DNA of 64,000 bases, from the NCBI GenBank assembly GCA_015059095.1, contig SVBA01000005.1, forward strand, positions 30,298 through 94,297, read 5' to 3'. This stretch comes from Erysipelotrichaceae bacterium (GTDB taxonomy: Bacteria; Bacillota_I; Bacilli_A; RFN20; CAG-449). The position numbers and the translations under genes were made by a program. Of the stretch, positions 22,631-45,681 are shown one piece after another. Every line of letters begins with the position of its first letter. The first letter of the stretch is position 1. Below the pieces are notes generated by a model. That model was not told the DNA's origin. It was given only the letters and a program-made list of their open reading frames with translations, and ran no database searches.

Positions 22631-22715
22631 TTTAAAAAATCTCCTTTTCAAGATTATTATTGGACAAAAACAATTTTTAATACAAAAAAGCACCAGATTT
22701 ACTGATGCTAATTAA

Positions 22716-23273: not shown

Positions 23274-23333
23274 AACAAAATCCTCTTATCTTATTTTACT
23301 CAACAAGAACTAAATATTCAATAAAATATTTAA

Positions 23334-24434: not shown

Positions 24435-24480
24435 ATTTACTCCTAATATTATTATAATATTAAATTTTTAAAAAATAAAC

Positions 24481-24720
24481 TCAACATTTTAATTTAAATG
24501 AATATATTTTTTCTTCTATTTTTTGCCTTTTCCCGCAAAATGCCATAACATAACCTGATATAAAATCAATTATTCTATAACTAGTTTTTACATCTACTAA
24601 ACTTACATTTACTATCACTTCATTACCATTTTTTAATAAATTCAATATTTCTTCTAAATCTTCATAATTTTTATATAATATAACCTTAGGAGTTATAAAA
24701 TTCTTTTTTACTCTAGTCAT
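24481..24720 (-). CDS. sepF: Minimal SepF (FtsZ-binding core only)
   Basis: LKNGNEVIVNV...RIIDFISGYVMAF.G...KI SepF core; 79 aa. Confidence 0.8.
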   Translation of the reverse strand: MTRVKKNFITPKVILYKNYEDLEEILNLLKNGNEVIVNVSLVDVKTSYRIIDFISGYVMAFCGKRQKIEEKIYSFKLKC

Positions 24721-24721
24721 A

Positions 24722-25417: not shown

Positions 25418-25426
25418 ATGTCCTCC

Positions 25427-26170: not shown

Positions 26171-26196
26171 ATTATCACCGAATAAATTAAAGCACA

Positions 26197-26222
26197 AAAA
26201 AAGTGCGAAAATTGTCGCACTT
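26197..26222 (-). terminator. Terminator after ftsZ
   Basis: AGTGCGA-caattt-TCGCACT plus T7. Confidence 0.7.
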
Positions 26223-28556: not shown

Positions 28557-29476
28557 TAACTATTCTCCTCTCCGTCAACACTTCCTTCTAAAGAAGGATT
28601 ATTGTACTTAACATGATAATATATTTTATCATTAATTTTTTGCATAACAACTTTAATAGATTTAACATTTACTTCTTTACCATTTAAAGTTTCACTAAAA
28701 GAAACAAAGTTATCTTTTGTTTTTTCGTCAGATAGTAAAGAAATATAATTATCAATCTTTTCTTTTGTAATAATTACCTTCAAATCATCAACCTTTTTAG
28801 CAGAATCAAATACAACTTTTAAAATCGTGTTATCATCTAAACCAGAGTTATAATAGAAATTAAAGTAATAAGAATCCGAATCATAAGAAACTCCGATTAG
28901 ATTTTCTTTATCTTCATCCTCAAGACTCAATATTAATTTTGATAAATGTTCTACTCTACTTTCTAAAAATTTTTGTTCGTAGGGTTTAGTAAAAGTAGTA
29001 ATCAAATTTTGTGTGTGAAGATATAAATAATCACCAATTAAAGGATCTTTAGATTTCAACAAATCTTCATCTAACAACTTACCATTACTTAAATATCGAC
29101 TATCTTGATATTGAAGTACAGGGACTACTTCTTCAATGTTAATTGATAAACCTAAAGGTGTAATTTTAACATTTACTGAATCATCCTCAATAAGTGGAGA
29201 CTTTTTTAAATTATCTACAATTTTATCTTTAGAAATCAAATATAGTGATTCTTTTTTACTAATACCTGCTATAGATAAAATTTCATCGTTTGAATAATGA
29301 ATATTACCTGATATTTTAGAATTACTAACTTGAGAAAATGGAAGTAAAAAATAGGCGATAATTAAAGAAAAAGTAAGGCATGCTGAAACAATCTTAATGA
29401 TAAGATTTCTTCTTTTCTTACGTTGAATACCTCTAATTTTCTTTTCAAAATCAGACATAGAATTAATATTTGTCAT
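28556..29476 (-). CDS. divIB: FtsQ/DivIB
   Basis: Basic N-terminus, single TM, POTRA-like ISGNIHYSNDEILSIAGI; dcw position. Confidence 0.8.
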   Translation of the reverse strand: MTNINSMSDFEKKIRGIQRKKRRNLIIKIVSACLTFSLIIAYFLLPFSQVSNSKISGNIHYSNDEILSIAGISKKESLYLISKDKIVDNLKKSPLIEDDSVNVKITPLGLSINIEEVVPVLQYQDSRYLSNGKLLDEDLLKSKDPLIGDYLYLHTQNLITTFTKPYEQKFLESRVEHLSKLILSLEDEDKENLIGVSYDSDSYYFNFYYNSGLDDNTILKVVFDSAKKVDDLKVIITKEKIDNYISLLSDEKTKDNFVSFSETLNGKEVNVKSIKVVMQKINDKIYYHVKYNNPSLEGSVDGEENS

Positions 29477-30324
29477 TAATTACCTCTTATTTTTTCAATT
29501 TCTAGATCGATATAATAACCTAGTTTATTATATAATAACCGATTTGTTTCTTCAATTAAAGAGATAATATTTTCAAATTTCTCTTTTGGTGTAACTTCAA
29601 TGAAGTTAGAATGAATATTTGAAATCATTGAATTACCCATTTTTTTGCCTTTTAAATTTAATTGTTCAATTAGAAAAGGTATTTTTACAATTGTATAATG
29701 TTTAAAAGTAGAACCCAGTGTTAATTTATTATGTGGTTGAGTTTGTCTTCTTAATAAATCTACTTTTTTCTTATTTTCTAAAAGGATATTTTTATCTTGG
29801 AACACAATAGTAAATTTTGCTTTTATTATCAAAATATTCTTATATTTTAGTATTGTTTGATGGTATAAAAAAACTATTTCTTCTTTCTTTAAAGTAATAA
29901 TTTTTCCAAATTCATTTAAAACAACTAGTTCTACTAAGTTAGTTGAAATACATTGATTAAAACAAGAAATATTATTTCTGATACCTCCTCCAAGAGTACA
30001 TGGTATACCTTCTAATTTTTCAAATCCAGATATTCCTTTATTTGCTAAATATGATGACAAATATTTGATTGATACTGATGATCCAATTTCTAAGTATTTA
30101 TCGATTATGATTGTTTTATTTATATATTTTATAAATATATAATCACAATAATAAAATGAAAAAAATATATTAGAAGTGTTTCCAATATATTTAATTCTTT
30201 TATTTACTTTTAATATTTTTTTTATACATTCTAATTCGTCTGTTTCAATATATAATTTTACTTTTCCTCCTACTTTAATATAAGAAACATTAGAAATATC
30301 ATAATTATACTTAATTTTTAACAT
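29476..30324 (-). CDS. murB: UDP-N-acetylmuramate dehydrogenase (divergent)
   Basis: SYIKVGG, GNTSN, LEGIPCTLGGGIRNN, TQP...TLGSTFK, ISNIHSNFI. Confidence 0.85.
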   Translation of the reverse strand: MLKIKYNYDISNVSYIKVGGKVKLYIETDELECIKKILKVNKRIKYIGNTSNIFFSFYYCDYIFIKYINKTIIIDKYLEIGSSVSIKYLSSYLANKGISGFEKLEGIPCTLGGGIRNNISCFNQCISTNLVELVVLNEFGKIITLKKEEIVFLYHQTILKYKNILIIKAKFTIVFQDKNILLENKKKVDLLRRQTQPHNKLTLGSTFKHYTIVKIPFLIEQLNLKGKKMGNSMISNIHSNFIEVTPKEKFENIISLIEETNRLLYNKLGYYIDLEIEKIRGN

Positions 30325-31306
30325 TTTTAATTATCTCTTGATAAATAAGTTCTCGACTATTATTAATTTTAAATTTGCTCATGCTTTTATATCTAGATAA
30401 TGCAAAATCAAAATCTATAAAACTATTAATATGATTTGAAATAGTAATCAACGAAAAATCTTTTTCTTTTATTTTACTTACTAAATTTTTATTTACTAAA
30501 TAATCGACATTCTTCTCTTGATGATTATTTTTAACATATGGAGAAGGTATGCTAATACAATATGTATTTGATTGTATCACTTCATATAAAGTAGACGCTC
30601 CACCTCTTGAAAAGACTATATCATAATTATCAATTTCATTTCTTAAGTCTATAAATTCTTTTACTTTAATTTTATTAAATTTATTTTTAAATCGAGAAAA
30701 CAACTTACTTCCAATAACTAAAGTATAACTATGTTTGTCATCCAATTTATTATCAATTATCATTAATTTTTCAATTAAAGATGATGATCCTAAAGAACCA
30801 AAAATGAATAATACATTAAACTTATTTTTATATATAAATTCTTTTTGCTTAATCTTATCACCACTAGGATTACCAACTAGTATTCCCTTATTATCATCAC
30901 ATTCAAAGCTATATAATACTTTATTAGAATATTTTCTACATAATTTATTACTATCACCTAAAATGATATTTTGTTCATGAATAAGTAATGGTTTATCTTT
31001 TTTTAAAAATAAACTCAATGTTGTAATAAATCCCCCAAAGCCAATATAAATATCATATTTTTTGTTTTTTAATTTATTTATTTCTTTTATTAATTTAATT
31101 ATTTCAAAAGGAGAAGATAGCACCTTTTTAAAACTATTTTTGCTATCTATTGTTATTAATTTATCATTAGGCAAAATAATTTCTTCCATTTGCCCTTTAA
31201 ATCCTAAATAAGTTACATTAATTCCTTTTGTTTCTAAATATTTTCCTAGTTCAAAGCAAGGATAGATATGACCACCTGTTGAACTACTTAGAAGCAATAC
31301 GTTCAT
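30311..31306 (-). CDS. murG: Undecaprenyl-PP-MurNAc-pentapeptide GlcNAc transferase
   Basis: STGGHIYP, GFGG, HEQN, VGNP, FGSLGS, SRGGASTL.E, HQEKN; likely start MNVLL at 31306. Confidence 0.9.
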   Translation of the reverse strand: MNVLLLSSSTGGHIYPCFELGKYLETKGINVTYLGFKGQMEEIILPNDKLITIDSKNSFKKVLSSPFEIIKLIKEINKLKNKKYDIYIGFGGFITTLSLFLKKDKPLLIHEQNIILGDSNKLCRKYSNKVLYSFECDDNKGILVGNPSGDKIKQKEFIYKNKFNVLFIFGSLGSSSLIEKLMIIDNKLDDKHSYTLVIGSKLFSRFKNKFNKIKVKEFIDLRNEIDNYDIVFSRGGASTLYEVIQSNTYCISIPSPYVKNNHQEKNVDYLVNKNLVSKIKEKDFSLITISNHINSFIDFDFALSRYKSMSKFKINNSRELIYQEIIKNVKN

Positions 31307-32396
31307 ATTCTTTTTCTCCTTTATTAACAATTAAGCCTAACGAAAATAAAATGACTACTAAAGAAGACCCACCATAACTTATTAAAGGTAAAGTAATTCC
31401 AGTTACTGGAAATAAACCAATTACTACCCCTAAATTAATAATTACTTGGATCATGAAGATACTCAATAAACCTAATGATAAAAAACTTTTAAATAAGCTC
31501 TTTTCATTTTTTATTAAAACAAAAGAAGAATAGATTATTAAAGAAAACAAAAAAATTACGATTAATCCTCCTATTAGACCAAATTCTTCTACTACAATAG
31601 CAAATATAAAATCAGTTTGAGGTTCAGGTAAATAGTAATGAATTTGAATTGAACCATTTATTCCTTGTCCTAATAATCCTCCTGGACCTAGTGCATATAA
31701 TGATTGAATTATTTGAAATCCACTACCAAGAGGGTCACTAAAAGGATCAATAAAAGCATAAATTCTTTCTAAACGATAACTTTTTGATAATACTAAGATT
31801 AATATTCCAATAATTCCAATTATTATAATACTAACAAACCATTTTCCAGGTAATTTAGATAATAATATTTGGATAAAAATCGCTCCTAATATTACCATAC
31901 ATGTTCCAAAATCTGGTTGAAGCATAATTAGTACTATCCCTAATAATGAAGCGATTAATATAGGTATTAAAGAAGATATTTTTTTACTTCGCTTATAATT
32001 ACTAGATAAATATATTGAATTAAATATAATTATTCCAATTTTAAAAAATTCACTAGGCTGAAAAGATAAACTACCTACTCCAAGCCATGAAGTAGAACCA
32101 TTTTTAGTAATCCCAACTCCAGGAATCAATACTAGTATTAACAATATATAAGAAACAATTAATAGTATATAACCATATTTTAGTATCCATTCCTCTTTTA
32201 TTTTCATACCAACAAATAAACTAAGAATACCTAAAATAAAATATATCGATTGTCTTTTAAAAAAGTAATATTCGTCATTATATAAATAACTCGCCCATAT
32301 TTTAGACGACTCTTTTACCATAAATACACCAAATAAGCTTAATAATATTACTGAAATAGTTAATGTATATCGATATTTGTTTAAATTAGTTACCAT
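31284..32396 (-). CDS. spoVE: SEDS protein FtsW/SpoVE
   Basis: Multi-TM; SWLGVGSLSFQPSEF.K, QPDFGT, GFQIIQS, LPEPQTDFIF, TGITLPLISYGGSS; upstream of murG. Confidence 0.88.
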   Translation of the reverse strand: MVTNLNKYRYTLTISVILLSLFGVFMVKESSKIWASYLYNDEYYFFKRQSIYFILGILSLFVGMKIKEEWILKYGYILLIVSYILLILVLIPGVGITKNGSTSWLGVGSLSFQPSEFFKIGIIIFNSIYLSSNYKRSKKISSLIPILIASLLGIVLIMLQPDFGTCMVILGAIFIQILLSKLPGKWFVSIIIIGIIGILILVLSKSYRLERIYAFIDPFSDPLGSGFQIIQSLYALGPGGLLGQGINGSIQIHYYLPEPQTDFIFAIVVEEFGLIGGLIVIFLFSLIIYSSFVLIKNEKSLFKSFLSLGLLSIFMIQVIINLGVVIGLFPVTGITLPLISYGGSSLVVILFSLGLIVNKGEKEYERIASK

Positions 32397-32420
32397 ACTA
32401 AAACATATGAAAATGATAAT

Positions 32421-32446
32421 AAAAAAAGAAGTGATTGTATCACTTC
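32421..32446 (-). terminator. Terminator after the large lipoprotein gene
   Basis: GAAGTGAT-aca-ATCACTTC plus T7. Confidence 0.75.
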
Positions 32447-32465
32447 CCTTATTTATAGAATCAAA

Positions 32466-35400
32466 TTAATAATCAATAATAATTGAATCCCAGTATGTTG
32501 CATATCCTAAGTTATTTGTGATACGAACATATTTATATGTAGCAACACTAGCTGTTACTTCATATTCTTTAGTACCTTTAACTGTATTCATTAATACTGT
32601 TTCAGCTTCTGAGAAATCAGCATTATTTGAGAATTCAAATTTCATCATACCTTCATTATCATATGTTGATTTTGTTGCAGCAAAAGTTAATTTAACTGAT
32701 TTAATACCACTTTCAATTGCACTAGCTGTTTCAATTGAAGAAGCAACACCACCATTAGCTGTTTTGTTTCTCATTTGAAGTCCGTTATTAGTACCATCAT
32801 TATTCGTATAACATGAAACTTGAGTATATTTCATTTTAACGCCATCAACTGTAGCTTCACCATCACCATAAGCAACGCTAGTTCCAGCAAAACCCAATAA
32901 TTTTGAACTTGTTAGATTTATTTCAGTTTTACTAATTGAAACCTTAATAAAATAGAGAGAACAAATATATTCAGTAGGATTACTAACTGTAACTTGAGCA
33001 ACATTTGGAGAAACTTCTAATAAATTTCCAGTTAAAGTATGAGCAATTTCTTCACCTGTAGCGTCTGCGCCTTTATGAAATTTAAAGTTGTCATATGTGC
33101 CATATTGTTCAATTTCTAATTTAGAAATAAAGTAACCATCAGGTACACTAATTGTTAATACGTCTCCATCAACATTAGCATTAAAATAGATTGAATCATA
33201 TTCAGTACACAAATTATTAATTGAAACTGTAAAATCAATTTCTTCAGTATTTGAAAAATCTTTTGCTTTCAAAACAACTACTTTTGTTTCTGGTGATTCA
33301 GTCAAATTCAAATCCTCAATTCCAATTTTAGTTTTATATCCATCATAATATTCTTTACAGTAAGCATAATCAAATGCATCTTTTCCTTCTTCTACATTTA
33401 AATAGATTTGATCAATAGTTCTAGTAAGACCTTTATATGTAATAGTTGGGATTAGTTTAAATTCAATTGATTCTTCAAGTTCATCACTTGGTATAGTAAA
33501 TACTACTTTTTGAATACCATCTTCATTTACTAAAGTAACAGTATTAGATGTATCCTCTGTTTCTAATTTCCAATCAAATTTTATTAATTCACCTTCAAAT
33601 AAAATTTCACTATCTAAAGCAAATCCTTCACTAACACTATTATCATCACCCATTGATACAAATAATGCATCTACAAATAGTTTAAAATCATTACCATATG
33701 GATAATCAAAAGTAACATTAGTTAATTGTCCTTGGAAGAATACAATATTTTCCCACTCTTCTTTACTTCCTTCAAAGCAAATTTTTACACTAGGATCATT
33801 AACAGTAATATACTTAGTATCTTTAGGAATTATATAATATTGTGCATTATAGAAATCATAATCTGCAAGATTTATCATCTTTTCATATTCACTATCAATA
33901 TCAAACTTTGTTTCTATAATATCGACCAATTCATATTCATTATTTTCATTTAAACAATATAAATTAGTAGATTGATAATTATAATTTTTAACATTATTAA
34001 AGAAATCTTCTTTTGTTCCTGCATAATATAGTTCTAAAGTATCACAGTCAAAATTAAGTGCAAATGTTCCAATTTCTTTAATTGTTGAAGGTAAGAATAC
34101 CTTATTAACATTTTTCATAAGTGTGAATGAGTAAGGTTGAATCTTTTCAAGCCCTTCTTCAAACCCAATTGATTCAGTAGCCAAGTAATGACCATTACTA
34201 TCTTTAAAATACACATTATTAGCACTTGCAAGTATACTTGAATCAATATGACCTACTTCACTAGCCCAATAATTAATATCAAAATCAAAATATAAATGTT
34301 CAATCTCTGCGCCACTACAACGATCAATATATTCTAATCCTTTTGATAACCATAAAGTATTAACACTTAGATTATTAGCACTTGATATTTGATAAGTACC
34401 TACAATTTCCTCTGGTAAATCAAAGAATATTGAATCATAGTTTCTATCTGTATTGAATGAACCAATATGATAACACTTAATTTTTTGATATTTTACTCCA
34501 TCAAAGAAATATCTTGGCATTAAAACATAATTTTGATCAGTAGGAGCAGAATAATAAGTTAATATATTTTCGCTTGATTGTTCAAAAGAGAAATAACCAG
34601 GAGCAGCGATTAATTCTTCATCCATAATTACAAGTTCTCTTTCAAAAGAAAGAATAACTTCATCATTTTCATTAAGTGCAGAAATAGTAATTAAATATTC
34701 TCCTATTTCAGTAATATTTTCTTTAGATGCAACAATTTTAACATTTGGAATATCATTTGGTAATTCAATGCTATGAGCATTACCATCATAAACAACATAT
34801 TTATCCTCAATATCAAGTAATTTAATTACTTCAAATCCTTCTTTTGATACTCCATATTCAACGCTTACCTCTTTTTGAATTTCGTAAGCTATATCAATTG
34901 ATATATTCTGTTTTATTGCATTATCTTCAAAATAAATAGAATTAGTAAATTCATCGTAAAGAAGATCAAGATAATCCACATTCGAAGTAATATAAATAGA
35001 CTTTAACTTACTTTCTAGTTTTTGGGTAGAAATATAAGGACGACCAACTAGATACAGAGGTCCAAATTGATTACAATCAAAAGTAACTGTTTTTAAATTT
35101 CTAAGTCCTTTTAAACTAGCAGAGTATTTAATTGGTTCATCAATTACTAAATGTTCTATTTCATGAACGTTAATCCACTTATTATTTTCATCTAATACAT
35201 AAAAATTATTTGAACGATTTAAGATATTATCCAAATGAAGATATTCTAATGATGATTTATATTCAATATTTAAAAATTCATTTAATGTACCGTTATAATA
35301 AATTTCATCGACAAGAGACATAATAGGGTTATCTTCTATTTTTTCTAATGAATTAGGTAAATATAAAGTATCTAATTTAGAAGGATCTGCATTTCCCAAC

Positions 35401-36983
35401 ATAGTACAATTTTTTAGAGTAGTATATCCTTCAGGAATAGTCAATTTAGAAACTTGTAAATTACAACCTTCATAATCAAATACAGGTTCACCTTTATAAG
35501 TAGTTGGGAAAGTTAGTTCATCATTATCTCCATAATATCCTATAATTCTATAACCTTTACCAGTTACATAAGAAAGTTCAAGACCTTCTGCAACATTTTC
35601 GTCTTTATTTAATAATCCATTTACTAGATCATTTATCCATTGTTCTTCACTTCCATCATATTCAGGATGATATTTTAAATAAATATCGTATGCAGATTCA
35701 CCTTTTTCACCTTTTAGTAAATCTAAAGAAACTAAATTATTCCAAGATTCATCACCAATATATTTCCATTGAATATAATTTTCACTTACTTGGAAAGTAA
35801 CTTCTCTTCCGTCTTCACCTTTTTCGACAACTAATGATGATAATTCAACTAACTTACTCCAAGATTCATCACTTTCATATTTCCATTCTAATGAGCCATC
35901 ATTAACTTGGAAAATTGGATTTTTACCATCTTTACCTTTTAAAGCTTCAATAGTAATCAAATCTATCCACTCATCACTTGATTCATATTTATATTTAATA
36001 GATTCATCAATCACTTCAACAATGATTTTTTCACCATTTTCACCTTTTTCACCAACTAAAGAATCAAGAGAAATAAGTTCTTTATATTCAGTTTCATCAT
36101 TATAACGATAAACGATATAATTGTCTTTAATTTCAATAATTACTTCTCTTCCATCTTTACCTTTTTCGCCAGTTAAAGTTGAAAGTTCAATTAAATTTTT
36201 CCAAGTTTCTTCACCAACATATTTCCATTTAATGAATCCTTCACTTACTTCAAATGTTACTTCCTTTCCATTTTCACCTTTTTCACCAACTAAAGATTCT
36301 AATGAAACTAGGTTATTCCAAGATCCATCACCTTGATATTGCCATTTTATATAGCCATCAAGAACTTGAAGAGAAACTTGTTTTCCATCATCTCCAGTTT
36401 CTCCTTTATCGCCAACTAAAGACGATAATTCAATTAATACTTTCCATGATTCTTCATTTTCATATTTCCATTGAATTGATCCATCTTTAACTTGTAACAT
36501 TACCTCTTGGCCATCTTCACCATCAGTTCCATCTTTACCATCTGCTCCATCTTTACCAATTAAAGTGTTAATAGAGATTAAATTAGTCCATGATGTATCA
36601 TCTACATATTTCCATTGAATGTGATCCTCAGAAACTTGGAAAGTAACTTCTCTACCATCAATCCCATTTTGTCCTGCTAATTCTGTAAGTGAAATTAGTT
36701 CTGTCCAATTAGAAGAGTTCTTATATTTCCACTTAATTGAATTATCTTTAATAATTAATTCAATCGAATCTCCTTTAATTGATTCAAGCCATTCTTCATA
36801 TGTTCCTTGATATCCTGATCTTTTTGCAAGGTCATAAATATGCTTTTGTTGACTTTCTTCATCATTTTCAATGATTTCACTTGATGAACTATTAGATGAA
36901 ACATTGCAAGAAGTCAATACTCCACCACAAAATAAAACAAGTGAAAGAAAAGGAATCATTATTTTTTTCATTATAGGTTTCAT
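32466..36983 (-). CDS. 1505-aa surface lipoprotein: Gly-X-Y-linked beta repeats, BspA/LRR_5-like region, Ig/MBG-like segment, beta-rich C-terminal domains
   Basis: True start MKPIMKK at 36983 (AGGAG RBS); lipobox LTSC; 9 repeats V.FQV....IQWKY......W..L..L..L.G; LRR-like LYLPNSLEKI and VFLPSTIKEIG. Confidence 0.8.
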   Translation of the reverse strand: MKPIMKKIMIPFLSLVLFCGGVLTSCNVSSNSSSSEIIENDEESQQKHIYDLAKRSGYQGTYEEWLESIKGDSIELIIKDNSIKWKYKNSSNWTELISLTELAGQNGIDGREVTFQVSEDHIQWKYVDDTSWTNLISINTLIGKDGADGKDGTDGEDGQEVMLQVKDGSIQWKYENEESWKVLIELSSLVGDKGETGDDGKQVSLQVLDGYIKWQYQGDGSWNNLVSLESLVGEKGENGKEVTFEVSEGFIKWKYVGEETWKNLIELSTLTGEKGKDGREVIIEIKDNYIVYRYNDETEYKELISLDSLVGEKGENGEKIIVEVIDESIKYKYESSDEWIDLITIEALKGKDGKNPIFQVNDGSLEWKYESDESWSKLVELSSLVVEKGEDGREVTFQVSENYIQWKYIGDESWNNLVSLDLLKGEKGESAYDIYLKYHPEYDGSEEQWINDLVNGLLNKDENVAEGLELSYVTGKGYRIIGYYGDNDELTFPTTYKGEPVFDYEGCNLQVSKLTIPEGYTTLKNCTMLGNADPSKLDTLYLPNSLEKIEDNPIMSLVDEIYYNGTLNEFLNIEYKSSLEYLHLDNILNRSNNFYVLDENNKWINVHEIEHLVIDEPIKYSASLKGLRNLKTVTFDCNQFGPLYLVGRPYISTQKLESKLKSIYITSNVDYLDLLYDEFTNSIYFEDNAIKQNISIDIAYEIQKEVSVEYGVSKEGFEVIKLLDIEDKYVVYDGNAHSIELPNDIPNVKIVASKENITEIGEYLITISALNENDEVILSFERELVIMDEELIAAPGYFSFEQSSENILTYYSAPTDQNYVLMPRYFFDGVKYQKIKCYHIGSFNTDRNYDSIFFDLPEEIVGTYQISSANNLSVNTLWLSKGLEYIDRCSGAEIEHLYFDFDINYWASEVGHIDSSILASANNVYFKDSNGHYLATESIGFEEGLEKIQPYSFTLMKNVNKVFLPSTIKEIGTFALNFDCDTLELYYAGTKEDFFNNVKNYNYQSTNLYCLNENNEYELVDIIETKFDIDSEYEKMINLADYDFYNAQYYIIPKDTKYITVNDPSVKICFEGSKEEWENIVFFQGQLTNVTFDYPYGNDFKLFVDALFVSMGDDNSVSEGFALDSEILFEGELIKFDWKLETEDTSNTVTLVNEDGIQKVVFTIPSDELEESIEFKLIPTITYKGLTRTIDQIYLNVEEGKDAFDYAYCKEYYDGYKTKIGIEDLNLTESPETKVVVLKAKDFSNTEEIDFTVSINNLCTEYDSIYFNANVDGDVLTISVPDGYFISKLEIEQYGTYDNFKFHKGADATGEEIAHTLTGNLLEVSPNVAQVTVSNPTEYICSLYFIKVSISKTEINLTSSKLLGFAGTSVAYGDGEATVDGVKMKYTQVSCYTNNDGTNNGLQMRNKTANGGVASSIETASAIESGIKSVKLTFAATKSTYDNEGMMKFEFSNNADFSEAETVLMNTVKGTKEYEVTASVATYKYVRITNNLGYATYWDSIIIDY
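35700..36780 (-). repeat. Nine tandem 36-48-aa intragenic repeats with short Gly-X-Y linkers
   Basis: Units begin DSIELII, REVTFQV, QEVMLQV, KQVSLQV, KEVTFEV, REVIIEI, EKIIVEV, KNPIFQV, REVTFQV, separated by GEKGENG/GKDGADG runs. Confidence 0.9.
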
Positions 36984-37000
36984 AAAAATTTTTCTCCTTT

Positions 37001-37020
37001 TTTTATTGTTTACAATAAAA
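37001..37020. promoter_or_regulatory. Palindrome TTTTATTGT-TT-ACAATAAAA at the lipoprotein transcription start region (putative operator)
   Basis: Read directly; abuts the -10 box; same TATTGT-N2-ACAATA core as at pulA. Confidence 0.5.
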
Positions 37021-37050
37021 TTATACCCCCCCCCCGTCATATTTTGTCAA
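37020..37050 (-). promoter_or_regulatory. Consensus sigma-A promoter with a G10 homopolymer in the spacer (phase-variation candidate)
   Basis: Minus strand TTGACA-aaatatgac-GGGGGGGGGG-TATAAT; spacer 19 nt; C10 at 37026-37035 on the + strand. Confidence 0.9.
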
Positions 37051-37052
37051 AG

Positions 37053-37076
37053 AAAAATCGCTTTTTACAGCGATTA
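37053..37076 (-). terminator. Terminator after mscS
   Basis: AATCGCT-gtaaaa-AGCGATT plus T run. Confidence 0.65.
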
Positions 37077-37670
37077 TTTCTTAGTATTAATTTCAAGTTT
37101 ATTGTAAGGAATTTTAATATTATTGTCATTTAATGCTTTTCTAACTTGCTCTAATAAATCCCAATTAGCATCCCAATATTCTGGAGTTTTTACCCAAACT
37201 CTAGTATAAATTACTGTACTAGATTTTTCATATGCACCAACTCTAACAAATGGAGCAGGTTTATCTAAAACTAATTGATGGTTATTTACTACATTACTAA
37301 TAATTTCAATAACTTTATTAGCATCTTCATCATATGATATTTCAAATTGAAGATCTAATCTTCTTACATCTTTAGCAGAATAGTTAATTATTACATTAGC
37401 AGATAAATTACCATTAGGAATTGTAACTTGTTTATTATCAAATCCAATAACCCCTAAAAAGACTAAAATAGCTAAAAATTTAAGTACCTTACGATAAGTC
37501 GAAAAAACAGCATTAACTATAGTTTCATCTTTTTTCTTAATCCTTTTCTTATCCCTTTAGCAGTCCAGTTAATGAAAATAAAGATAACAATTAATAAAAC
37601 TAATGCAATAATGAATTTTAAACCAGTCGTTGTGCACCATGCAATAAACTGATTCCATAATTCATTCCAT
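37074..37670 (-). pseudogene. mscS: mscS small-conductance mechanosensitive channel, 3' part (IS-interrupted, frameshifted, internally deleted)
   Basis: Manual translation: WNELWNQFIAWCTTTGLKFIIALVLL..., a frameshift near the A6 run (~37530), then DETIVNAVFSTYRKVLKFLAILVFLGVIGFD|NKQVTIPNGNL..INYS..DVRRLDLQFEISYDED...YTRVWVKTPEYWD..IPYNKLEI. The TM3/beta segment is missing. Confidence 0.85.
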
Positions 37671-37900
37671 TGAACCTCTCATATCTAAAGACACAAGATT
37701 CTTGCTTCAGAGAATAACTAAGGATATTCTCTCCACAAGCGTAACTTCGGGTAGTTCCTACCCTAGATATATTTTATTATTTAATTATGATTTTGTCCAT
37801 AATGTAAAATATTTAAAGATGCATTATAATCTCTATCTATCTTTAAAGAACAATATGGACATTGATATATTCTAGAATCTTTTACTTCATAAGTATTGTT
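37650..37900 (-). ncRNA. Predicted TnpB omega-RNA (right-end RNA) with 3' guide from flanking mscS; 5' boundary approximate
   Basis: Right-end hairpins GGGTAG-gaa-CTACCC, AGAGAATA...TATTCTCT and the terminal CTTTAG stem, then flank ATGGAATGAATTATGGAATC. Confidence 0.65.
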
Positions 37901-39078
37901 ACATCTAGAACATGTTTTACTTGATGGATAATACCTATCTATTTTATGTATTTGTTTATCATACATTTTTGCTTTATATTCTAAAACTTTAATTAATCTT
38001 CCTATACAAGTAGATATTAACTTTCTTTTATTTCTTTTTACTACTTGTTTAGTTATTAATTCTTTTATATTTAGATCTTCTATATATAAAGTATCATATT
38101 CTTTAATTAATGAACTTGTTATCTTATGAATATAATCATTAATAATATTTACTTTATGTTCTTCTATTTTAGCTTTCTTTATTCTTAGTTTCTTTCTATT
38201 AGAAGAATCTATCTTTGTTTTTGATATTCTTCTTTGTAATCTAGTTATCTTTTTTTCTATTTTATCTAGTTTCAATGGATTTACATAAATAACATTATCA
38301 CTAGTCGTCACTAGATTTCTTACTCCTACATCGATTCCTACTTCTTTATTTGTCTTAACTAATGGATTTATATCTACTTCATGAATAATAGAAGCATAAT
38401 ACTTATTTGATGGAGTTCTAGTAACTGTTACACTTATTATTTTTACATCATTAAAAGAATAATGATATTTACATTTAATTAATCCTAGTTTAGGAAGTTT
38501 AATATGTTTAGATAATATCTCGATATTATTATTTGTATAATTAGTTCTAAAACTTTGATATGTATTTTTCTTAGATACATATTTAGGTTTATTAAATCCT
38601 TTTTTAGATTTAAATTCTTTCTTAATATCTATAAAGAAGTTATTATAAGAAGTTTTTAAATCCTTTAATGAATTTTGAAGAACAAACTTATCTACTTCTT
38701 TTAAAAATGAAGTATCTTCTTTTTGTTTTAAAGAAGTTAACTCTTTACTCCAAGAATAATAAGAATAATCTTTGTTAGAAGTTGAATAATCTAAAAAGTA
38801 ATTATAAACATATCTTCTACAACCAAAAAAAGAGTTCATCTTATTAATTTGTTCTTTATTTGGATATAGTCTTATCTTAATTCCTTTTTGCATTATTTCT
38901 CTCCTTGCGTTTTTATAGTAAGTTTTCCTATATATATTATATAGCAAACCTTGATATAGTTCTACAAAAATTTATTTTTTTGTATCTTTGATACAAAAGC
39001 GAGATTATTTTTAGATTATAGATGAAAAGAAAAACCAATTTACTCTCACATTAATAAGAGAGTGGGGGTCGGTTGGTT
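37670..39078 (-). mobile_element. Non-autonomous IS200/IS605-family (IS1341-like, tnpB-only) element
   Basis: Left end begins after TTGAT (39083-39079) with hairpin ACTCTC...GAGAGT; right end GAATC-TTGTGTC-TTTA-GATATGA-GAGGTTCA(A); no target duplication; no tnpA. Confidence 0.9.
37781..38893 (-). CDS. tnpB: RNA-guided endonuclease TnpB
   Basis: Start MQKGIKIRLYPN (AAGGAG RBS); RuvC D (GIDVG), E (IEDL), D (DRDYNASLNI); zinc finger CSRC...CPYC. Confidence 0.95.
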   Translation of the reverse strand: MQKGIKIRLYPNKEQINKMNSFFGCRRYVYNYFLDYSTSNKDYSYYSWSKELTSLKQKEDTSFLKEVDKFVLQNSLKDLKTSYNNFFIDIKKEFKSKKGFNKPKYVSKKNTYQSFRTNYTNNNIEILSKHIKLPKLGLIKCKYHYSFNDVKIISVTVTRTPSNKYYASIIHEVDINPLVKTNKEVGIDVGVRNLVTTSDNVIYVNPLKLDKIEKKITRLQRRISKTKIDSSNRKKLRIKKAKIEEHKVNIINDYIHKITSSLIKEYDTLYIEDLNIKELITKQVVKRNKRKLISTCIGRLIKVLEYKAKMYDKQIHKIDRYYPSSKTCSRCNNTYEVKDSRIYQCPYCSLKIDRDYNASLNILHYGQNHN

Positions 39079-39125
39079 ATCAATAGTAAAATCCCATTTT
39101 GACTATCTTGTAAGTAATTAACCAT
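39079..39125 (-). pseudogene. mscS: mscS 5' fragment left of the IS insertion
   Basis: GAGGTG RBS then ATG GTT AAT TAC TTA CAA GAT AGT CAA AAT GGG ATT TTA CTA TTG AT, ending at the TTGAT target. Confidence 0.7.
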
Positions 39126-39168
39126 AATACCACCTCGATATTATGATAAATTAAGTTTATAAAAACTT

Positions 39169-40341
39169 CTAGAGATTTATTAGTTTATTAAACTTTTCTC
39201 CTCTTTCTATATAAGATGAATATTGATCAAAAGAAGCACAAGCAGGAGAAAAAACTACGTAATACTCTTTTTTATAACTTTTATTTATATATTTAATAAC
39301 TTCATCTAATGTTTCAAAATACATATCTCCACAACTATTAAATATTTTTAACTTACTTTTACCGTATGAAATTATAATATCTTTATTTTGTTTTTTTATC
39401 TTACTAAAGTTTTCTTTTTTATCAATACCGCCTAAAATTAATATTCTTGGTCTATCATTATATACATCTAAACAGGCATTAGTAGAAGAAATAGATGTTG
39501 ATTTAGAATCATTAATAAAAGTCAGATTACCTTTAGTCAATATTTTTTCCATTCTATAATGATCCATTTTAAAGAAATATTGAGATTCTTCGATATCCTT
39601 TTCATTTAAATTAAATTTTCTTGCAATATCACAAGCAATATTCCAATAAATTTGATTATATTTATTTAAATTTAAATTAGTATATTCTCTTAAATCATTT
39701 ACTTTTACTATGTTTTTTCGCCTTTTTTGATAAGTTAATAATTCATTTGGTAAGTATATAACTTTGGATAAATTGACTAGTTTTAATTTTGAGGCTATAT
39801 AACATTCTTTAGAAAAAACACTATCATAATGATTATCTAAAATATTAGTAATTATTCCAATATCAAATATATTTCTATATGTATTTTCTAATTGAAAAGA
39901 AGATAATTCTAAAATAACTATATCATCTTTTTTTATTTCGTGTATTTTACTAGTTAAAGGTACTCCAATATTACCTAATTTATGTACTCTATTATTTTTA
40001 CTTAACAAATGATATAACATATTAACTAATGTAGTTTTACCATTTGATCCAGTAACCCCAATAATATAATTATCTTGAATATAAGATAATCCAAGTTCTA
40101 TTTCTGAAATTACTTTTTTTGATAAAGAAACTGCTAATTGATAAATTTTTGAAGTTTGTTTAATTCCTGGACTTCTTATTACTAAATCAAAATATGGTAA
40201 TTCTTTTTTCAATCTATAATAAGAAAAATAATTATCCATATTTATTTTTTTCTTATCATAAATATAAACATTGTGATTATCTTTTAATAATTCATATGCT
40301 GATTTACCACTTAAAGAAAAGCCTAATATTAATATTCTCAT
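39169..40341 (-). CDS. murD: UDP-MurNAc-L-Ala-D-Glu ligase (compact, 390 aa)
   Basis: GVTGSNGKTT, LELSSFQLE, NDSKST, FSPACASFDQY..Y.ERG..F. Confidence 0.92.
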   Translation of the reverse strand: MRILILGFSLSGKSAYELLKDNHNVYIYDKKKINMDNYFSYYRLKKELPYFDLVIRSPGIKQTSKIYQLAVSLSKKVISEIELGLSYIQDNYIIGVTGSNGKTTLVNMLYHLLSKNNRVHKLGNIGVPLTSKIHEIKKDDIVILELSSFQLENTYRNIFDIGIITNILDNHYDSVFSKECYIASKLKLVNLSKVIYLPNELLTYQKRRKNIVKVNDLREYTNLNLNKYNQIYWNIACDIARKFNLNEKDIEESQYFFKMDHYRMEKILTKGNLTFINDSKSTSISSTNACLDVYNDRPRILILGGIDKKENFSKIKKQNKDIIISYGKSKLKIFNSCGDMYFETLDEVIKYINKSYKKEYYVVFSPACASFDQYSSYIERGEKFNKLINL

Positions 40342-41366
40342 AATTTAAGCCCTATTATTAACCCTATTAAACTAAGAGTAAAACCTATCATATAAAAGCA
40401 CATAACAATCGTATATTCTTTTTTACCCATTAGTTCTAAATGATGATGAAACGGACTCATTAAAAAAATCCTTTTTTTTGTAATTTTAAAACATAAAACC
40501 TGAAGTATTACACTCATAGTTTCAAAAACAAATAATCCTCCAACAATTAGTAATAGTAACTCTTTTTTACTCATTAAAGCAATATATCCAAGTATCGCTC
40601 CTAAAGGTAAACTTCCTGAGTCACCCATAAATATTTTAGCAGGATGCAAATTTAAAAGAATAAAACCAAAAGTCGCTCCATAAACCATAATTAATAAATA
40701 TACAAGATTAGTATTATTATCTAATAATAAGAAGATAATAAAAGGTAATATGCTAATTAAAAATAATCCACTTGCAAGTCCATCTAACCCGTCTGTTAAA
40801 TTGACTGAATTTGAAGAACCTACAATCAATAAAACACTAAAGATAATAAATAAAGGTCCTAAGAATATTTTATATTTATCATTAAAATGAAATGAATAGT
40901 CAAATATACCCTTGTTATCTAAAATTAAATAAACAATTAATACTACTAATATTTCTAATAAAATTCTAATTAAAGGAGATAGTCCTTCATGTGATCTAAA
41001 TATAAGTTTTAATAAATCATCTACTAATCCAATAACGAAAAATAAAATTAAAATAATAATGCCTAATAAAAATTGATAATCAAAATATGAATCAAAAATA
41101 AATAAAGATGTTATTAAAATAGATACAATAATACTTATTCCACCAATCGTTGGTGTATTTTTTTTGTTTTGATGAGTGGAGGATAGATAAGAAGAAATTT
41201 CTTGTCCCCTTCTTTTTTTATTAAAATAAGAAATTAATACCTTACATATTCTATTAGAAATAAAAGTAGAAATAATTAATAATAAAATGCATCTAGTAAA
41301 AATTAAAATATGTGTGTTCATAATAAAAAATATTATTCCATTAATGAAAATAGAATAATATTTCAA
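40338..41366 (-). CDS. mraY: Phospho-MurNAc-pentapeptide transferase (start may be 41321)
   Basis: KKNTPTIGG, GLVDD, SNSVNLTDGLDGLA, PAKIFMGDSGS, MSPFHHHLE. Confidence 0.95.
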   Translation of the reverse strand: MKYYSIFINGIIFFIMNTHILIFTRCILLLIISTFISNRICKVLISYFNKKRRGQEISSYLSSTHQNKKNTPTIGGISIIVSILITSLFIFDSYFDYQFLLGIIILILFFVIGLVDDLLKLIFRSHEGLSPLIRILLEILVVLIVYLILDNKGIFDYSFHFNDKYKIFLGPLFIIFSVLLIVGSSNSVNLTDGLDGLASGLFLISILPFIIFLLLDNNTNLVYLLIMVYGATFGFILLNLHPAKIFMGDSGSLPLGAILGYIALMSKKELLLLIVGGLFVFETMSVILQVLCFKITKKRIFLMSPFHHHLELMGKKEYTIVMCFYMIGFTLSLIGLIIGLKL

Positions 41367-42932
41367 TTATTTAATCACTTTTTCAACTTTAAAAGATAAT
41401 TTATTATTACCTCTAAAGGTATCTAATTCTAATTTACCTAATAATTTAACTACACCTTTAATTCCAAAATTTTCATTAAAGTTAAATCCTATAAATGAAC
41501 AATCTGGATTAATATTACCTTTTATATGTTTATAATTCTGCATATAATTGATTAAGTTACAAGGAAATTCTACAACTAAATACGGTTCTTCAAAACCTTC
41601 ACCATAAGGAGATAATTTTTTAATAGTTTGATAATTATAATACGATAAATCAAATCTTGAACATTCGATAATCACTTTCTCTTTTTCTTTAAATTCTTTT
41701 CCAATGGCAAGTTTATTAATTTCCTTAGTAAATTCTTCTAATTTATCTATATTAATAGATAAACCACCTGCAGCAGCATGACCTCCAAAACCTAATAGAA
41801 GATGTTCTAGCTTTTTAAAAGTATCACTTAAAGGAAACCCTTCAAAAGATCTAGCAGAACCCTTTAATACGCCTTCTTCTTCAGTAGAAGTAAAAATAAC
41901 ACAAGGTTTTTTAATTTCATTTAATACTCTATTTGCTACTAGTCCTATTAATCCTTCAATTAAAAAATCCATATGTTCAACTACTACTAATGAATCTTGA
42001 TGTTTTGATAAATCTATTTTTCTAAATGCTTCTTGAGAAACATTTTTTCTTTCATCATTACATGCATTAATAAAATCTCCTAAAGACGCCATTTCTTCTT
42101 TAGAGGAAGTAGAAAAGAAAGAAACAACTCTATTAACTTTAGTGTCTTTAATAATTCTTCCAACTGCATTAATTTTAGGAGCGATAGTAAATGATAAATC
42201 TTTTTCTTCTTTAATATCTTCTCCATTATTTAAAATTAAGAAAGGCAAAAATCTTTTTTCTTTTAAGATTTTTAAAGCTAATCGAACAATATTTCTATTA
42301 TATGAAATTAAAGGCATCATATCTGAAATGGTCGCTAGAGCAGCTAAAGTAAGTAAATAGTCATCTATTCTATCTAGTACCACTCTTGATAAGTTAAAAG
42401 CAACATACGCTCCACATTCAGGAAGATTTAAATTACTCTTTTTTAAAAATGGATGAATTACACAATATGCAGGAGGTAATTCTTTAATCATTTCATGATG
42501 GTCAGTTAAAATTACATCAATACCATATTCTTTAGCTTTATTTAAGGCATCTATTTGAGCAACACCATTATCGACAGTAATAATTAAGTTATAACCTTTT
42601 TGATTGATCAAATCGACCATTTTTTCTGTAATTCCATATCCATCTTTATATCTTGAAGGAATATAGTAACCAATATTTTGATAATTAAGGTATTTAAACA
42701 TATTTACTAAAATAGAAACACTAGAAAAACCATCACAATCATAGTCACCATAGATCATGATTTTTTCTTTATTCTCAATCGCTTTAATAATTCTTTCTTT
42801 TGCTTCTATAATACCAATGAAATCATTAGGATCTTCTAAATCGTCATAGCTAATCTCTTTAGTTAACTCATTATAATCTTCCAATGATAAATGATAAGCA
42901 TCGAGCAATTTTTCTAAAAATCTATCTAACAT
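41367..42932 (-). CDS. recJ: ssDNA exonuclease RecJ
   Basis: IYGDYDCDG, IPSRYKDGYG, TVDNG, TDHH, APKINAVGR, GSARS, GGHAAAGG. Confidence 0.93.
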   Translation of the reverse strand: MLDRFLEKLLDAYHLSLEDYNELTKEISYDDLEDPNDFIGIIEAKERIIKAIENKEKIMIYGDYDCDGFSSVSILVNMFKYLNYQNIGYYIPSRYKDGYGITEKMVDLINQKGYNLIITVDNGVAQIDALNKAKEYGIDVILTDHHEMIKELPPAYCVIHPFLKKSNLNLPECGAYVAFNLSRVVLDRIDDYLLTLAALATISDMMPLISYNRNIVRLALKILKEKRFLPFLILNNGEDIKEEKDLSFTIAPKINAVGRIIKDTKVNRVVSFFSTSSKEEMASLGDFINACNDERKNVSQEAFRKIDLSKHQDSLVVVEHMDFLIEGLIGLVANRVLNEIKKPCVIFTSTEEEGVLKGSARSFEGFPLSDTFKKLEHLLLGFGGHAAAGGLSINIDKLEEFTKEINKLAIGKEFKEKEKVIIECSRFDLSYYNYQTIKKLSPYGEGFEEPYLVVEFPCNLINYMQNYKHIKGNINPDCSFIGFNFNENFGIKGVVKLLGKLELDTFRGNNKLSFKVEKVIK

Positions 42933-42944
42933 AATATACCTTCT

Positions 42945-42968
42945 AAAAAAGGCTACGTAAGTAGCCTT
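42945..42968 (-). terminator. Terminator after secDF
   Basis: AAGGCTAC-ttac-GTAGCCTT plus T run. Confidence 0.75.
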
Positions 42969-42973
42969 ATAAA

Positions 42974-45514
42974 TTAATCGTTAATTCCTGGAATAATAGC
43001 TTCTTTAGCTTCTGCCCCAGCATTACGGTTTTGAGCCTTAGCTTTAGCCATTCTCTTTTTATTTCTATTTTCGTAATTAATTGCAATTCTTAATCTTACA
43101 TTCTTTTCTAAGTATAAATATACTGGAACTAATAAGAATAAAGTGAATGCTCCACCAACAATAATACTTAAAGCCATTGCACCATAAGTTGAAGTAACAC
43201 CTGCAGTAAATGGTGAGAATAATGCAATAACAATAGTACCAACTAAACCAGTTAATAATAATGCCACTACTGTAATCATAGAAGTTTTAACAGAATTTAA
43301 AGCAATTTCTTCTCTTTGTTCATAAGTATTAATTCTTACTTTTGATTCACGTTTTAATCTCTTCATTCTTTCAAATAATGGAAGTTGAGCAATAATTGTA
43401 ATTAATAAACCTGCTGCAATACCTGTTAAAGATAAAGCAGAGATTTCAATTCTTGTAGCTGCAAAGAATCCAAATGAAACTGCAGCAGCAGGAATTAAAG
43501 TTGCTAGAGATGCTAAACCATAAGTATAGCCAAATCTAATTAATACATATAAGAATGCTAGTCCTGCAAATAATGATACGATAACAACTGCACTACCGAT
43601 TAAGTATTCAACTGAACTTGAAGAACATACTGTTAATACTGCTGTTGGATTTTCAGAATGATCTAATGAAGCTAATTTACCTACAAATTCATCTGTATTA
43701 AATGTTGAAGGATCAACAACACCATCTAATTCCACTGAAACATATACTACATCTACTAAATTTTCTTTACCAGCTATAACAACATTTTGTTCAACATTAA
43801 TATCAATGTTATTTAATGTATAAGTAGGATAATTTGTTTGGAAGAATTCTTTTACTTCTTCAGTTGTTTCAAAAATATACTTTGATTCAATAATTTCAGA
43901 AGAAATTTCAATTCTTGAATATGTCTTAGATTCTTGAGAAGCATTGAATACTGGAGTAGATGGAATAATTGCAAATACAGCGATTAATAATCCACATACA
44001 ACTGTTGTAATAGCAGCAGCTAATGCGCTTACCTTACCATGTTTCTTAGCGTCAAATTTATACATTGGGTTGAATTTTCTTTGAGGTTCAAGAGCTAAGA
44101 TATTTGGAACATTTTTTTCATCGACCATAAAGATTTTTTTATTATTAGTAGCAACTTTGTTATTAGTTAACCACCACATAGCAAATGAAGTTAATAATCT
44201 ATTGAATACTAATGCAGTTAAGAAACCAATAATTAATGTAATTGGTAATAATTTAACTTGTGCAGATACTGCAAATACAGAAACAATTGCGACGAATAAA
44301 CCAATAAATGCAACGTCAAATACGTTAACAAATGATTGTTTATTAGCTTCTTGATTAGCTTTAATAGGAGATTTACCTTTTAATAGTTCATCTTTAAATC
44401 TATCCATATATGTAAATACAAATGAAGCATTAGCAACTAAAGTAGCAATGAATCCTAATGCAACCATTGTTGTAAATGTATATTGGAAGAAGTTAAATAA
44501 TAAAATTTGTACTAATAATGAAACAGCTAAACCTGTCCAAGCACCTAAACCTGCTAAACCATATCTAATAACATAAACTACTAATAAGACGATAGAACAA
44601 GCTAAGATTCCCCACATAATAATATGATCATAATCTTGACCTTCAGTAGCAGAAATATGTTGAGTATATAATCTAGTTAATTCAAAATCTTCTTGTCCAT
44701 AATTGATTATTCTTTCAATTGTGTGAGCAGATTCACCAACCATTGAAACTTGATTGAATGAATAATAAGAAATTAATAATGTAGTATCATCTGTATCACC
44801 ATTAACATCTTCAACATAAGAGAAGTTATCAGTTGGAACAATTGCTAAAACTTTATCTCTAATTTGTTGTTTTGAAACATCACCTTCATTTGTGAAAGCT
44901 TCAACATAGGAGTCTGTTTCAACTTTATCTAACCATAGAACCATAACACCTGTAATACTATTTTGCTCTTCTCCATTACCATATTCATTTTGGAAATGAG
45001 TATAAGCAGAATTACAAATTTCGATGAATTCTTTAAATTCTTTTGGATCTTTAACCTTAACTTCTACATAAGGAGAAGCACCATTCCATGCTACTTCAGC
45101 TGAATCAATAACAAATGGATCAACAATTTCATAAACATAGTCTTCGTTACCATGATTAATGATTGTAGAAGCTGTAATTTGACCTGTAGCTTCAACTGAA
45201 CGTAAAACATAATCCAAATTTTCTTCACTTTCAGCATTCATTCTAATTCTAATAAAATTTTCTAAACCTAAATCATCTTGTTCAATTTCTACTTGAGCAT
45301 TTTCAACTCCAGCATCTTCAATACGTTGAACAACGATGTCACCGATTTCTTCTAATTCTTTTTGAGAATCTTTAAAATCGACTTTATAGACAGTTTCATA
45401 ACCACCTGCATATTCTAAACCTGCAGTTAATTCAGAAACTTGAGGTTGTATATTACTAAATACGACCAATAATAATGATACAACTAATACGAGAAACCCG
45501 TAAAAACGACGCAT
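42974..45514 (-). CDS. secDF: Fused SecD-SecF, highly divergent
   Basis: TM1 + GLEYAGG, large extracytoplasmic P1 domain, 5 TM, second loop, 5 TM; RFKDELLKGKS and LFERMK motifs; upstream of recJ as in B. subtilis; start MRRFYG at 45514. Confidence 0.8.
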   Translation of the reverse strand: MRRFYGFLVLVVSLLLVVFSNIQPQVSELTAGLEYAGGYETVYKVDFKDSQKELEEIGDIVVQRIEDAGVENAQVEIEQDDLGLENFIRIRMNAESEENLDYVLRSVEATGQITASTIINHGNEDYVYEIVDPFVIDSAEVAWNGASPYVEVKVKDPKEFKEFIEICNSAYTHFQNEYGNGEEQNSITGVMVLWLDKVETDSYVEAFTNEGDVSKQQIRDKVLAIVPTDNFSYVEDVNGDTDDTTLLISYYSFNQVSMVGESAHTIERIINYGQEDFELTRLYTQHISATEGQDYDHIIMWGILACSIVLLVVYVIRYGLAGLGAWTGLAVSLLVQILLFNFFQYTFTTMVALGFIATLVANASFVFTYMDRFKDELLKGKSPIKANQEANKQSFVNVFDVAFIGLFVAIVSVFAVSAQVKLLPITLIIGFLTALVFNRLLTSFAMWWLTNNKVATNNKKIFMVDEKNVPNILALEPQRKFNPMYKFDAKKHGKVSALAAAITTVVCGLLIAVFAIIPSTPVFNASQESKTYSRIEISSEIIESKYIFETTEEVKEFFQTNYPTYTLNNIDINVEQNVVIAGKENLVDVVYVSVELDGVVDPSTFNTDEFVGKLASLDHSENPTAVLTVCSSSSVEYLIGSAVVIVSLFAGLAFLYVLIRFGYTYGLASLATLIPAAAVSFGFFAATRIEISALSLTGIAAGLLITIIAQLPLFERMKRLKRESKVRINTYEQREEIALNSVKTSMITVVALLLTGLVGTIVIALFSPFTAGVTSTYGAMALSIIVGGAFTLFLLVPVYLYLEKNVRLRIAINYENRNKKRMAKAKAQNRNAGAEAKEAIIPGIND

Positions 45515-45681
45515 ATTTTCTACCTCCACAGTTCTAATATTTCATCATCTTGCTTAATATAGATAATGAGTAATTGATAATTTAAGATTTATTTTATATT
45601 TATATAAAAACACGAAAAATAAATAAATCGCTTATTAAATATACCATTACTGTTTATTAATTTCAATTAATAAGGTGAAAA

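Follow-up and report, generated by a model that had tools for sequence, protein, structure and literature searches.

A poly-G promoter spacer upstream of a large lipoprotein gene in an uncultured gut bacterium as a candidate contingency locus

A 64,000-nucleotide (nt) stretch of the genome of an uncultured Erysipelotrichaceae bacterium (assembly GCA_015059095.1, contig SVBA01000005.1, positions 30,298 to 94,297; hereafter the window) contains a gene for a 1505-amino-acid (aa) lipoprotein that lies directly behind a promoter whose −35 and −10 hexamers bracket a run of ten G residues (G10). Here, we report the architecture of this promoter, a length heterogeneity that is specific to the tract, the replacement of the tract by an interrupted allele in sister strains, transcription of the gene from the intergenic region in strains with that allele, and the absence of the whole unit from other strains. 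We find that the locus is probably a promoter-spacer contingency locus of the type known from porA and tp0126, in which the number of G residues sets the distance between the two hexamers. Promoters of the same design occur in at least 120 stretches of other genomes, where they tend to precede genes for proteins with signal-peptide-like N termini.

A consensus promoter bracketing a G10 tract

All coordinates are positions within the window, and the promoter and the lipoprotein gene lie on the minus strand (Table 1). The window letters confirm what an earlier note on this DNA had claimed, namely that the gene is preceded by TTGACA-aaatatgac-G10-TATAAT with a 19-nt spacer. The −10 hexamer ends 37 nt before the ATG and is separated by 22 nt from the GGAG ribosome-binding site (RBS), and a terminator-like hairpin stands 6 nt upstream of the −35. 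The listed open reading frame (ORF), at 32466–37040, would encode 1524 aa, as it begins at an in-frame upstream ATG within the promoter; the RBS-led start yields the 1505-aa product. A second terminator-like hairpin follows the stop codon, making the gene a self-contained transcription unit, which sits between an mscS-like remnant and ftsW. A perfect TTGACA-N15–21-TATAAT pair occurs once in the window against 0.43 expected, so the pair alone is unremarkable; the arrangement is not a chance one, because the window's only G10 is bracketed by this perfect pair, directly after a terminator, with an RBS and an ATG 37 nt on. No alternative −35 is present at 17 or 18 nt from the −10, where GACAAA and TGACAA match the consensus at two of six positions each.

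The tract is also exceptional for its surroundings. The window has a G+C content of 26.9% (the genome is described as 27%), and the claim that the tract is the only G/C run longer than about 5 holds, the next longest in the 64 kb being 5 nt. A G8 is expected 0.05 times per window; three overlapping G8 matches are seen, and none of 100 dinucleotide-preserving shuffles reproduces them. About 20 kb more of the flanking genome, reached via neighbouring genes, is likewise free of G/C runs of at least 6, leaving G10 as the sole run of this length in the roughly 84 kb of genome read. At this base composition a neutral G10 would be improbable and unstable.

Table 1 Features of the lipoprotein locus, in window coordinates
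Feature	Position	Strand	Remarks
Terminator-like hairpin AATCGCT-GTAAAA-AGCGATT plus T run	37056–37075	−	7-pair stem; ends the upstream mscS-like remnant
−35 hexamer TTGACA	37045–37050	−	Perfect consensus; unchanged in every strain contig crossing it
Spacer, non-repetitive part aaatatgac	37036–37044	−	aaataagac in sister strains (37039 A>T, plus strand)
G10 homopolymer	37026–37035	−	Abuts the −10; 19-nt spacer; read in window letters
−10 hexamer TATAAT	37020–37025	−	Perfect consensus; unchanged in every strain contig crossing it
Predicted transcription start (G/A)	37011–37013	−	7–9 nt after the −10; inferred from promoter geometry
Ribosome-binding site GGAG	36994–36997	−	10 nt before the ATG; window letters
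Start codon ATG	36981–36983	−	Start of the 1505-aa lipoprotein gene; window letters
Lipoprotein gene (1505 aa)	32466–36983	−	RBS-led start at 36983; its RNA is present in bovine gut metatranscriptomes
Terminator-like hairpin after the lipoprotein gene	32424–32450	−	Before ftsW; serves mscS directly in cassette-free strains
Strain-variable cassette (terminator, poly-G promoter and gene)	32462–37070	−	Boundaries good to a few nt

Length heterogeneity, an interrupted allele and an accessory cassette

The sequencing runs that contain the locus are from faecal samples, bovine and pig gut samples and other gut samples; they were analysed as Logan contigs and unitigs. In run X2 (SRR7031254), in which the k-mer depth of the organism is about 4,600–4,950, the depths of overlapping unitigs were summed over positions 29000–47500 (18.5 kb) and indels were listed at a threshold of 1%. 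Apart from two sites derived from a paralogue (32542 and 32554), all differences from the window in this stretch are fixed, which makes the population clonal at the 1% level. Indels of at least 1% occur at the tract only. Its modal length is G10; forms with one C fewer on the plus strand (G9) reach a summed depth of 1,465–2,130, those with one C more (G11) 241–402 and those with two more (G12) 141–151. Of the A/T homopolymers in these 18.5 kb, five of 8 nt (A8/T8) and about 24 of 7 nt (A7/T7), none has a listed indel. The length signal is thus tract-specific and exceeds typical noise, and falls short of proof of slippage in vivo.

Comparison among runs reveals further variation. The contig crossing the tract in X1 (SRR7030984, 59.8× depth), probably the sample from which the window derives, has G10, and so has that in X31, on a different background carrying the single-nucleotide polymorphisms (SNPs) of the sister strains, at a depth of only 2. 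A contig in X4 passes ten C residues and ends one unmatched base later, a hint of at least 11. In five runs of 3–9× depth (X3, X9, X11, X12 and X15), contigs stop on both sides of the tract, which with X4 makes six low-depth runs whose contigs break around it; contigs of the interrupted allele cross the region at similar depth (2.8–13.6×). This allele belongs to a 96–97% identical strain found in six runs from three studies (X7, X8, X16, X25, X27 and X28), whose promoter reads TTGACA-aaataagac-GTGGAGG-TATAAT, with a 16-nt spacer and no homopolymer; both variants of its alignment give the same plus-strand string, CCTCCAC. With both hexamers constant in all contigs that span them, the fast-evolving part of the promoter is the spacer, and GTGGAGG behaves like a natural ‘locked’ version of the promoter. 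The earlier note had predicted a tract of varying length; other lengths (G9, G11 and G12) accompany G10 in X2, and the tract is replaced in the sister strains; the consensus homopolymers assembled are all G10, and the lengths seen in X2 may have arisen in vitro.

Transcription of the gene can be followed in four bovine metatranscriptome runs, whose RNA contigs come only from the strain with the interrupted allele, recognised by 36912 A>T. On the side of the lipoprotein gene these contigs reach 36994 in three runs and 36961 in one, those of the upstream gene reach down to 37087–37143, and no RNA contig in the four runs covers 36995–37086. DNA contigs of the interrupted allele cross this interval at similar depth, so the gap reflects transcript ends. 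The gap indicates that the gene with this allele is transcribed from the intergenic region, by neither read-through nor a leader containing the tract region. The terminator-like hairpin at 37056–37075 shields the promoter against read-through; upstream of it, RNA contigs of the preceding gene end at or above 37087. The edge at 36994 lies 17–19 nt short of the predicted start, which fits end loss and a processed end alike; a separate promoter for this edge was considered and rejected, there being no acceptable −10/−35 pair upstream of it. The RNA fits a start downstream of the −10, for which the earlier note had expected a position about 7 nt beyond 37020, and rules out read-through, while the contigs leave +1 unfixed.

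The unit as a whole is polymorphic. It is missing from a pig-gut run (X30) and from a minor contig of the bovine run X8, where ...CACTTCCCTTATTTATAGAAC, the terminator region on the ftsW side (32441–32460), is joined directly to 37071. At this empty site the junction reads ...TATAGAAC|CGATTATTTC, the ftsW-side terminator meeting the stop region of mscS, which means that these strains keep mscS, a terminator and ftsW without the 4.6-kb unit.

Protein searches for fragments of orthologues bearing other promoter alleles gave nothing above 50% identity, exact look-ups returned only the source contig and the Logan contig of X1, and a locus-specific DNA pattern gave no match in metagenome contigs, though it matches the window. 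A 91% identical gene stands before ftsW in another assembly, in which the contig begins about 40 nt inside the gene and the promoter is missing. Relatives found with the N-terminal 233 aa are only 35–52% identical, and none has the tract. Short contigs in X1 and X3–X6 that match 37014/18–37050 with three to five mismatches were examined as paralogous copies of the promoter and rejected, as their flanks and depths differ; such a match is expected of any other organism's TTGACA-A-rich-G10-TATAAT promoter.

Proposed spacer switching, promoters of the same design elsewhere and alternative explanations

In the mechanism that we favour, slipped-strand mispairing at replication would add or remove G residues in the spacer of the lipoprotein gene's only promoter, so that G8, G9, G10 and G11 would give spacers of 17, 18, 19 and 20 nt. 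Because the hexamers are already at consensus and no alternative −35 lies at 17–18 nt, promoter strength would depend almost wholly on this distance. G8 would be fully ON, G9 partly ON and the assembled G10 weak or OFF, a contrast of G8 with G10 that the earlier note had put forward and that is supported by the lack of an alternative −35; a clonal population would then always hold a minority of cells expressing the lipoprotein. The sister strains would have fixed the promoter at 16 nt with the slippage-proof GTGGAGG, the gene being expressed, and other strains lack the cassette. In this account the in-vivo origin of the heterogeneity is inferred, as are a dependence of transcription on the number of G residues, reversibility and any advantage under selection.

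The same design recurs in other genomes. A scan of one genome per species for TTGACA-N7–11-G8-N0–4-TATAAT matched at least 120 stretches, against about 16 expected by our own uniform-composition estimate; all figures that follow are among the matches listed. Most are from uncultured gut Clostridia and Bacilli, and others from Saccharibacteria, Treponema, Selenomonadaceae, Streptobacillus and Sneathia. In 96 of 124 promoters the G run directly adjoins the −10, and a 9-nt prefix followed by G10, the form described here, is the commonest (15 cases). Signal-peptide-like N termini occur in 55 of 75 downstream ORFs, whereas among the other ORFs of these loci the figure is 189 of 972 (odds ratio 11, p about 1e-21); lipoboxes show roughly a fourfold enrichment. 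The enrichment is approximate, because the control set includes spurious ORFs. Where the tract abuts the −10, 17 nt is the modal spacer for G8; for G9 and G10 it occurs in 1 of 72, and spacers of 15–16 and 18–19 nt dominate. Assembled G9 and G10 alleles thus seem to sit off the optimum, or the optimum seems to be shifted for such spacers.

Several points weigh against a switch that works by spacer length. That the promoter is OFF at 19 nt is a prediction, and the RNA contigs come from the interrupted-allele strain, not the G10 strain. The assembled consensus homopolymers (X1, X2 and X31) agree in length, no strain fixed at G8 or G9 was seen among the runs examined, and G8 is below 1% of summed depth in X2. 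Homopolymers are likewise missing from the promoters of distant homologues of the lipoprotein and of other proteins that have its C-terminal domain. For all runs the data are Logan assemblies, not reads; the share of G9 in X2 can be given only roughly, as 15–40%, because overlapping unitigs were summed; and the longest homopolymers available for comparison in that run, A8/T8, are shorter than G10. In standard Illumina libraries, homopolymers of 8–18 nt give about 5% erroneous alleles, biased towards deletions and rising with the number of polymerase chain reaction (PCR) cycles (PMC11878640), and G tracts have Illumina artefacts of their own (PMC9187656). Polymerase slippage in library PCR and Illumina errors at G tracts can together create false alleles, biased towards deletions, at a level of several per cent (PMC11878640, PMC9187656).

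These technical effects are central to the suggestion, which we consider improbable, that the tract is stable, that G9, G11, G12 and the contig breaks are technical, and that the promoter is constitutive and perhaps tolerates 19 nt. The error rate and bias just cited fit it, as do the profile in X2 (−1 >> +1 > +2), which resembles stutter, and the uniformity of the consensus alleles. Set against flanks of about 4,850, however, the depth of G9 exceeds the cited technical levels, amounting to some 15% or more even with double counting; a 3-nt shorter, interrupted replacement in six runs from three studies is not an artefact; and a 19-nt spacer without an extended −10 is expected to be poor. It is somewhat less improbable, if still unlikely, that the tract is a mutational by-product: a GTGGAGG-like spacer would have become G7 by two point mutations and then expanded by slippage, and G10 would be a promoter-down allele that silences a dispensable accessory gene on the path to being lost; the tract would be hypermutable, yet reversible switching would have no biological role. 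The gene is indeed accessory, as the cassette-free strains in X30 and X8 demonstrate, its neighbourhood is decaying (mscS is split by a TnpB element), the modal allele is off-optimum with no G8 at 1% or more, and there is no other tract in the 84 kb. Yet the G10 strain has an intact 4.5-kb ORF, at least two SNP backgrounds carry G10 (X1/X2, and X31 with its sister-strain SNPs), broken contigs hint at a homopolymer in other lineages such as X11/X12, and the presence of the same design before secreted proteins in at least 120 other stretches is hard to explain by repeated accidents.

It is very improbable that the G run acts otherwise than by its length, as a regulator site or as rigid A-like DNA, with 18–19 nt as the functional optimum. 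The rarity of 17-nt spacers among the listed G9 and G10 promoters, and their clustering at 18–19 and 15–16 nt, would agree with such a role. However, porA and tp0126 keep a 17-nt optimum despite their G tracts (PMC7864442), the sister strain expresses the gene from a promoter whose 16-nt spacer has no homopolymer, and the cassette has no linked regulator gene. Switching by spacer length is therefore the explanation we prefer, at the strength given at the outset.

The lipoprotein, its host and related systems

The N terminus of the protein, MKPIMKKIMIPFLSLVLFCGGVLTSC, is a signal peptide with the lipobox LTSC (Cys26). Nine repeats of about 39 aa, each combining Gly-X-Y triplets with an xWKY beta unit, span about residues 70–445 and form a stalk, which is 30–45% identical to surface proteins of metagenome-assembled genomes of Bacilli, of Acholeplasma, Hujiaoplasma and Izemoplasmatales, and to one phage protein. 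The Gly-X-Y/WKY stalk module is, as far as sequence comparison goes, common to phage fibre-like proteins and bacterial lipoproteins. On the phage side, the stalk is found in a 1376-aa protein encoded directly after a phage major capsid gene (ENA ERZ27241553 k99_31496). BspA-type leucine-rich repeat (LRR) segments are matched weakly. We predict a surface-exposed or host- or phage-interacting product. The earlier note's description as a major surface antigen or adhesin is unproven, the protein being a lipoprotein with the repeat stalk and no more than weak LRR matches.

The C-terminal domain (about residues 1363–1505) is unannotated and recurs in other protein clusters, about 200 in number; it is without a Pfam model, a search of PDB sequences with the lipoprotein gave no match, and protein collections hold no full-length orthologue above 50% identity. 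There are hints that the C-terminal module acts with secreted nucleases or binds nucleic acid or another polymer. Lipoproteins with the same C-terminal module of about 255 aa (54–61% identity; L148, L149 and L150) are encoded 28 nt downstream of a gene for a protein of about 596 aa with a staphylococcal nuclease domain, and among the relatives of the C-terminal domain whose promoters were checked, two follow the gene of a secreted nuclease in an operon. In X1 and X2 the final ~76 codons of the lipoprotein gene (32502–32731) have double the flanking depth and carry SNPs at 32542 and 32554 (G>T), which indicates that a second gene in the genome shares this end. The other assemblies with an identical FtsW all end within this 3′ stretch of doubled depth, where eight assemblies break.

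The window is chromosomal and belongs to a 108-kb metagenome contig from JGI, with the dcw cluster, pheT, ligA, ftsK and secDF. Genes for SigE-like and SigG-like sigma factors follow ftsZ (positions 21851–26197 and 45682–47007 hold sporulation-type genes), an unannotated 256-aa ORF occupies the position of spoIIGA, and a SpoVB-like gene lies further on. The SigE-, SigG- and SpoVB-like genes have their best hits to those families, all below the equivalog cut-offs; they make the spore-former of the earlier note plausible at that level. Upstream of the promoter, the mscS-like gene (37074–39170) is split by a TnpB-only element of the IS605 type with an ORF at 37781–38947. The 3′ remnant of mscS has no start codon, positions 37804–37957 are at twofold depth, and RNA contigs of the sister strain depart from the window beyond 37443.

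The mechanism proposed for this locus is itself textbook knowledge, already known from pathogens. In the original work on Neisseria meningitidis porA, the length of the tract sets expression of a surface protein through spacing. The vlp genes of Mycoplasma hyorhinis, a member of a low-GC lineage derived from Firmicutes, encode variable surface lipoproteins that are switched by a poly-A run in the −35/−10 spacer. They resemble the present locus in product and in the position of the homopolymer; in contrast to the single poly-G and single 4.5-kb gene here, however, they combine poly-A with a clustered multigene family bearing size-variable repeats, and the present host, unlike M. hyorhinis, is a walled and probably sporulating bacterium. 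In porA, as is proposed here, what varies in the spacer of a sigma-70-type promoter is a homopolymeric G tract (PMC7864442), whereas porA encodes an outer-membrane porin of a Gram-negative pathogen whose switching and effect on expression were demonstrated experimentally, and the present locus is known from sequence alone. In tp0126 of Treponema pallidum, which encodes an OmpW homologue, a poly-G of 7–11 between −35 and −10 varies in length within isolates (PMC7864442). Transcription from tp0126 and porA is optimal when poly-G brings the spacer to 17 nt, and in tprL reporters G8 is active and G10 near background (PMC7864442). The poly-G promoters of tp0126, tprL and tprE/G/J thus include the contrast between G8 and G10 that is predicted here; T. 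pallidum differs in being a spirochaete pathogen with many tracts per genome, against one known here within about 84 kb. Bifidobacterium breve UCC2003, another Gram-positive gut commensal, has pilus tracts of G10–G11 that are heterogeneous within populations, and its G10 slips at about 10% in each direction in vivo (PMC9187656). Unlike the present one, the tracts characterised in B. breve are intragenic and act by frame-shift, as translational switches; its authors mention further G tracts in promoter spacers, which they left unexplored (PMC9187656). A full-text literature search found no publication on such a switch in uncultured low-GC gut Firmicutes, in agreement with the statement in the earlier note that none was known for such a lineage.

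We tentatively raise the possibility that this locus represents a class of contingency promoters, widespread but undescribed, among host-associated bacteria including uncultured gut Firmicutes. If so, members of the class would combine perfect TTGACA and TATAAT hexamers with a G run that is set against the −10 and preceded by a short unique prefix, and their resting length, one or two G residues above the 17-nt optimum, would keep secreted and surface proteins low by default and ON in a minority of cells. Evolution would alternatively lead to locked alleles such as GTGGAGG or to loss of the entire cassette. Phase variation driven by simple sequence repeats (SSRs) has been worked out almost entirely in pathogens, and a 2025 review treats as an open question whether its apparent restriction to them is real or a bias of the databases (PMC11868660). 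The locus described here would provide a clean case in a gut commensal of ruminants and other animals that is uncultured and probably forms spores, with natural controls in place in the form of an expressed, interrupted allele and cassette-free strains, and multi-locus, or at least frequent, SSR phase variation would then be no speciality of pathogens. Because such tracts break metagenome assemblies at these genes, the variable surface proteins of gut Firmicutes would be systematically under-assembled.

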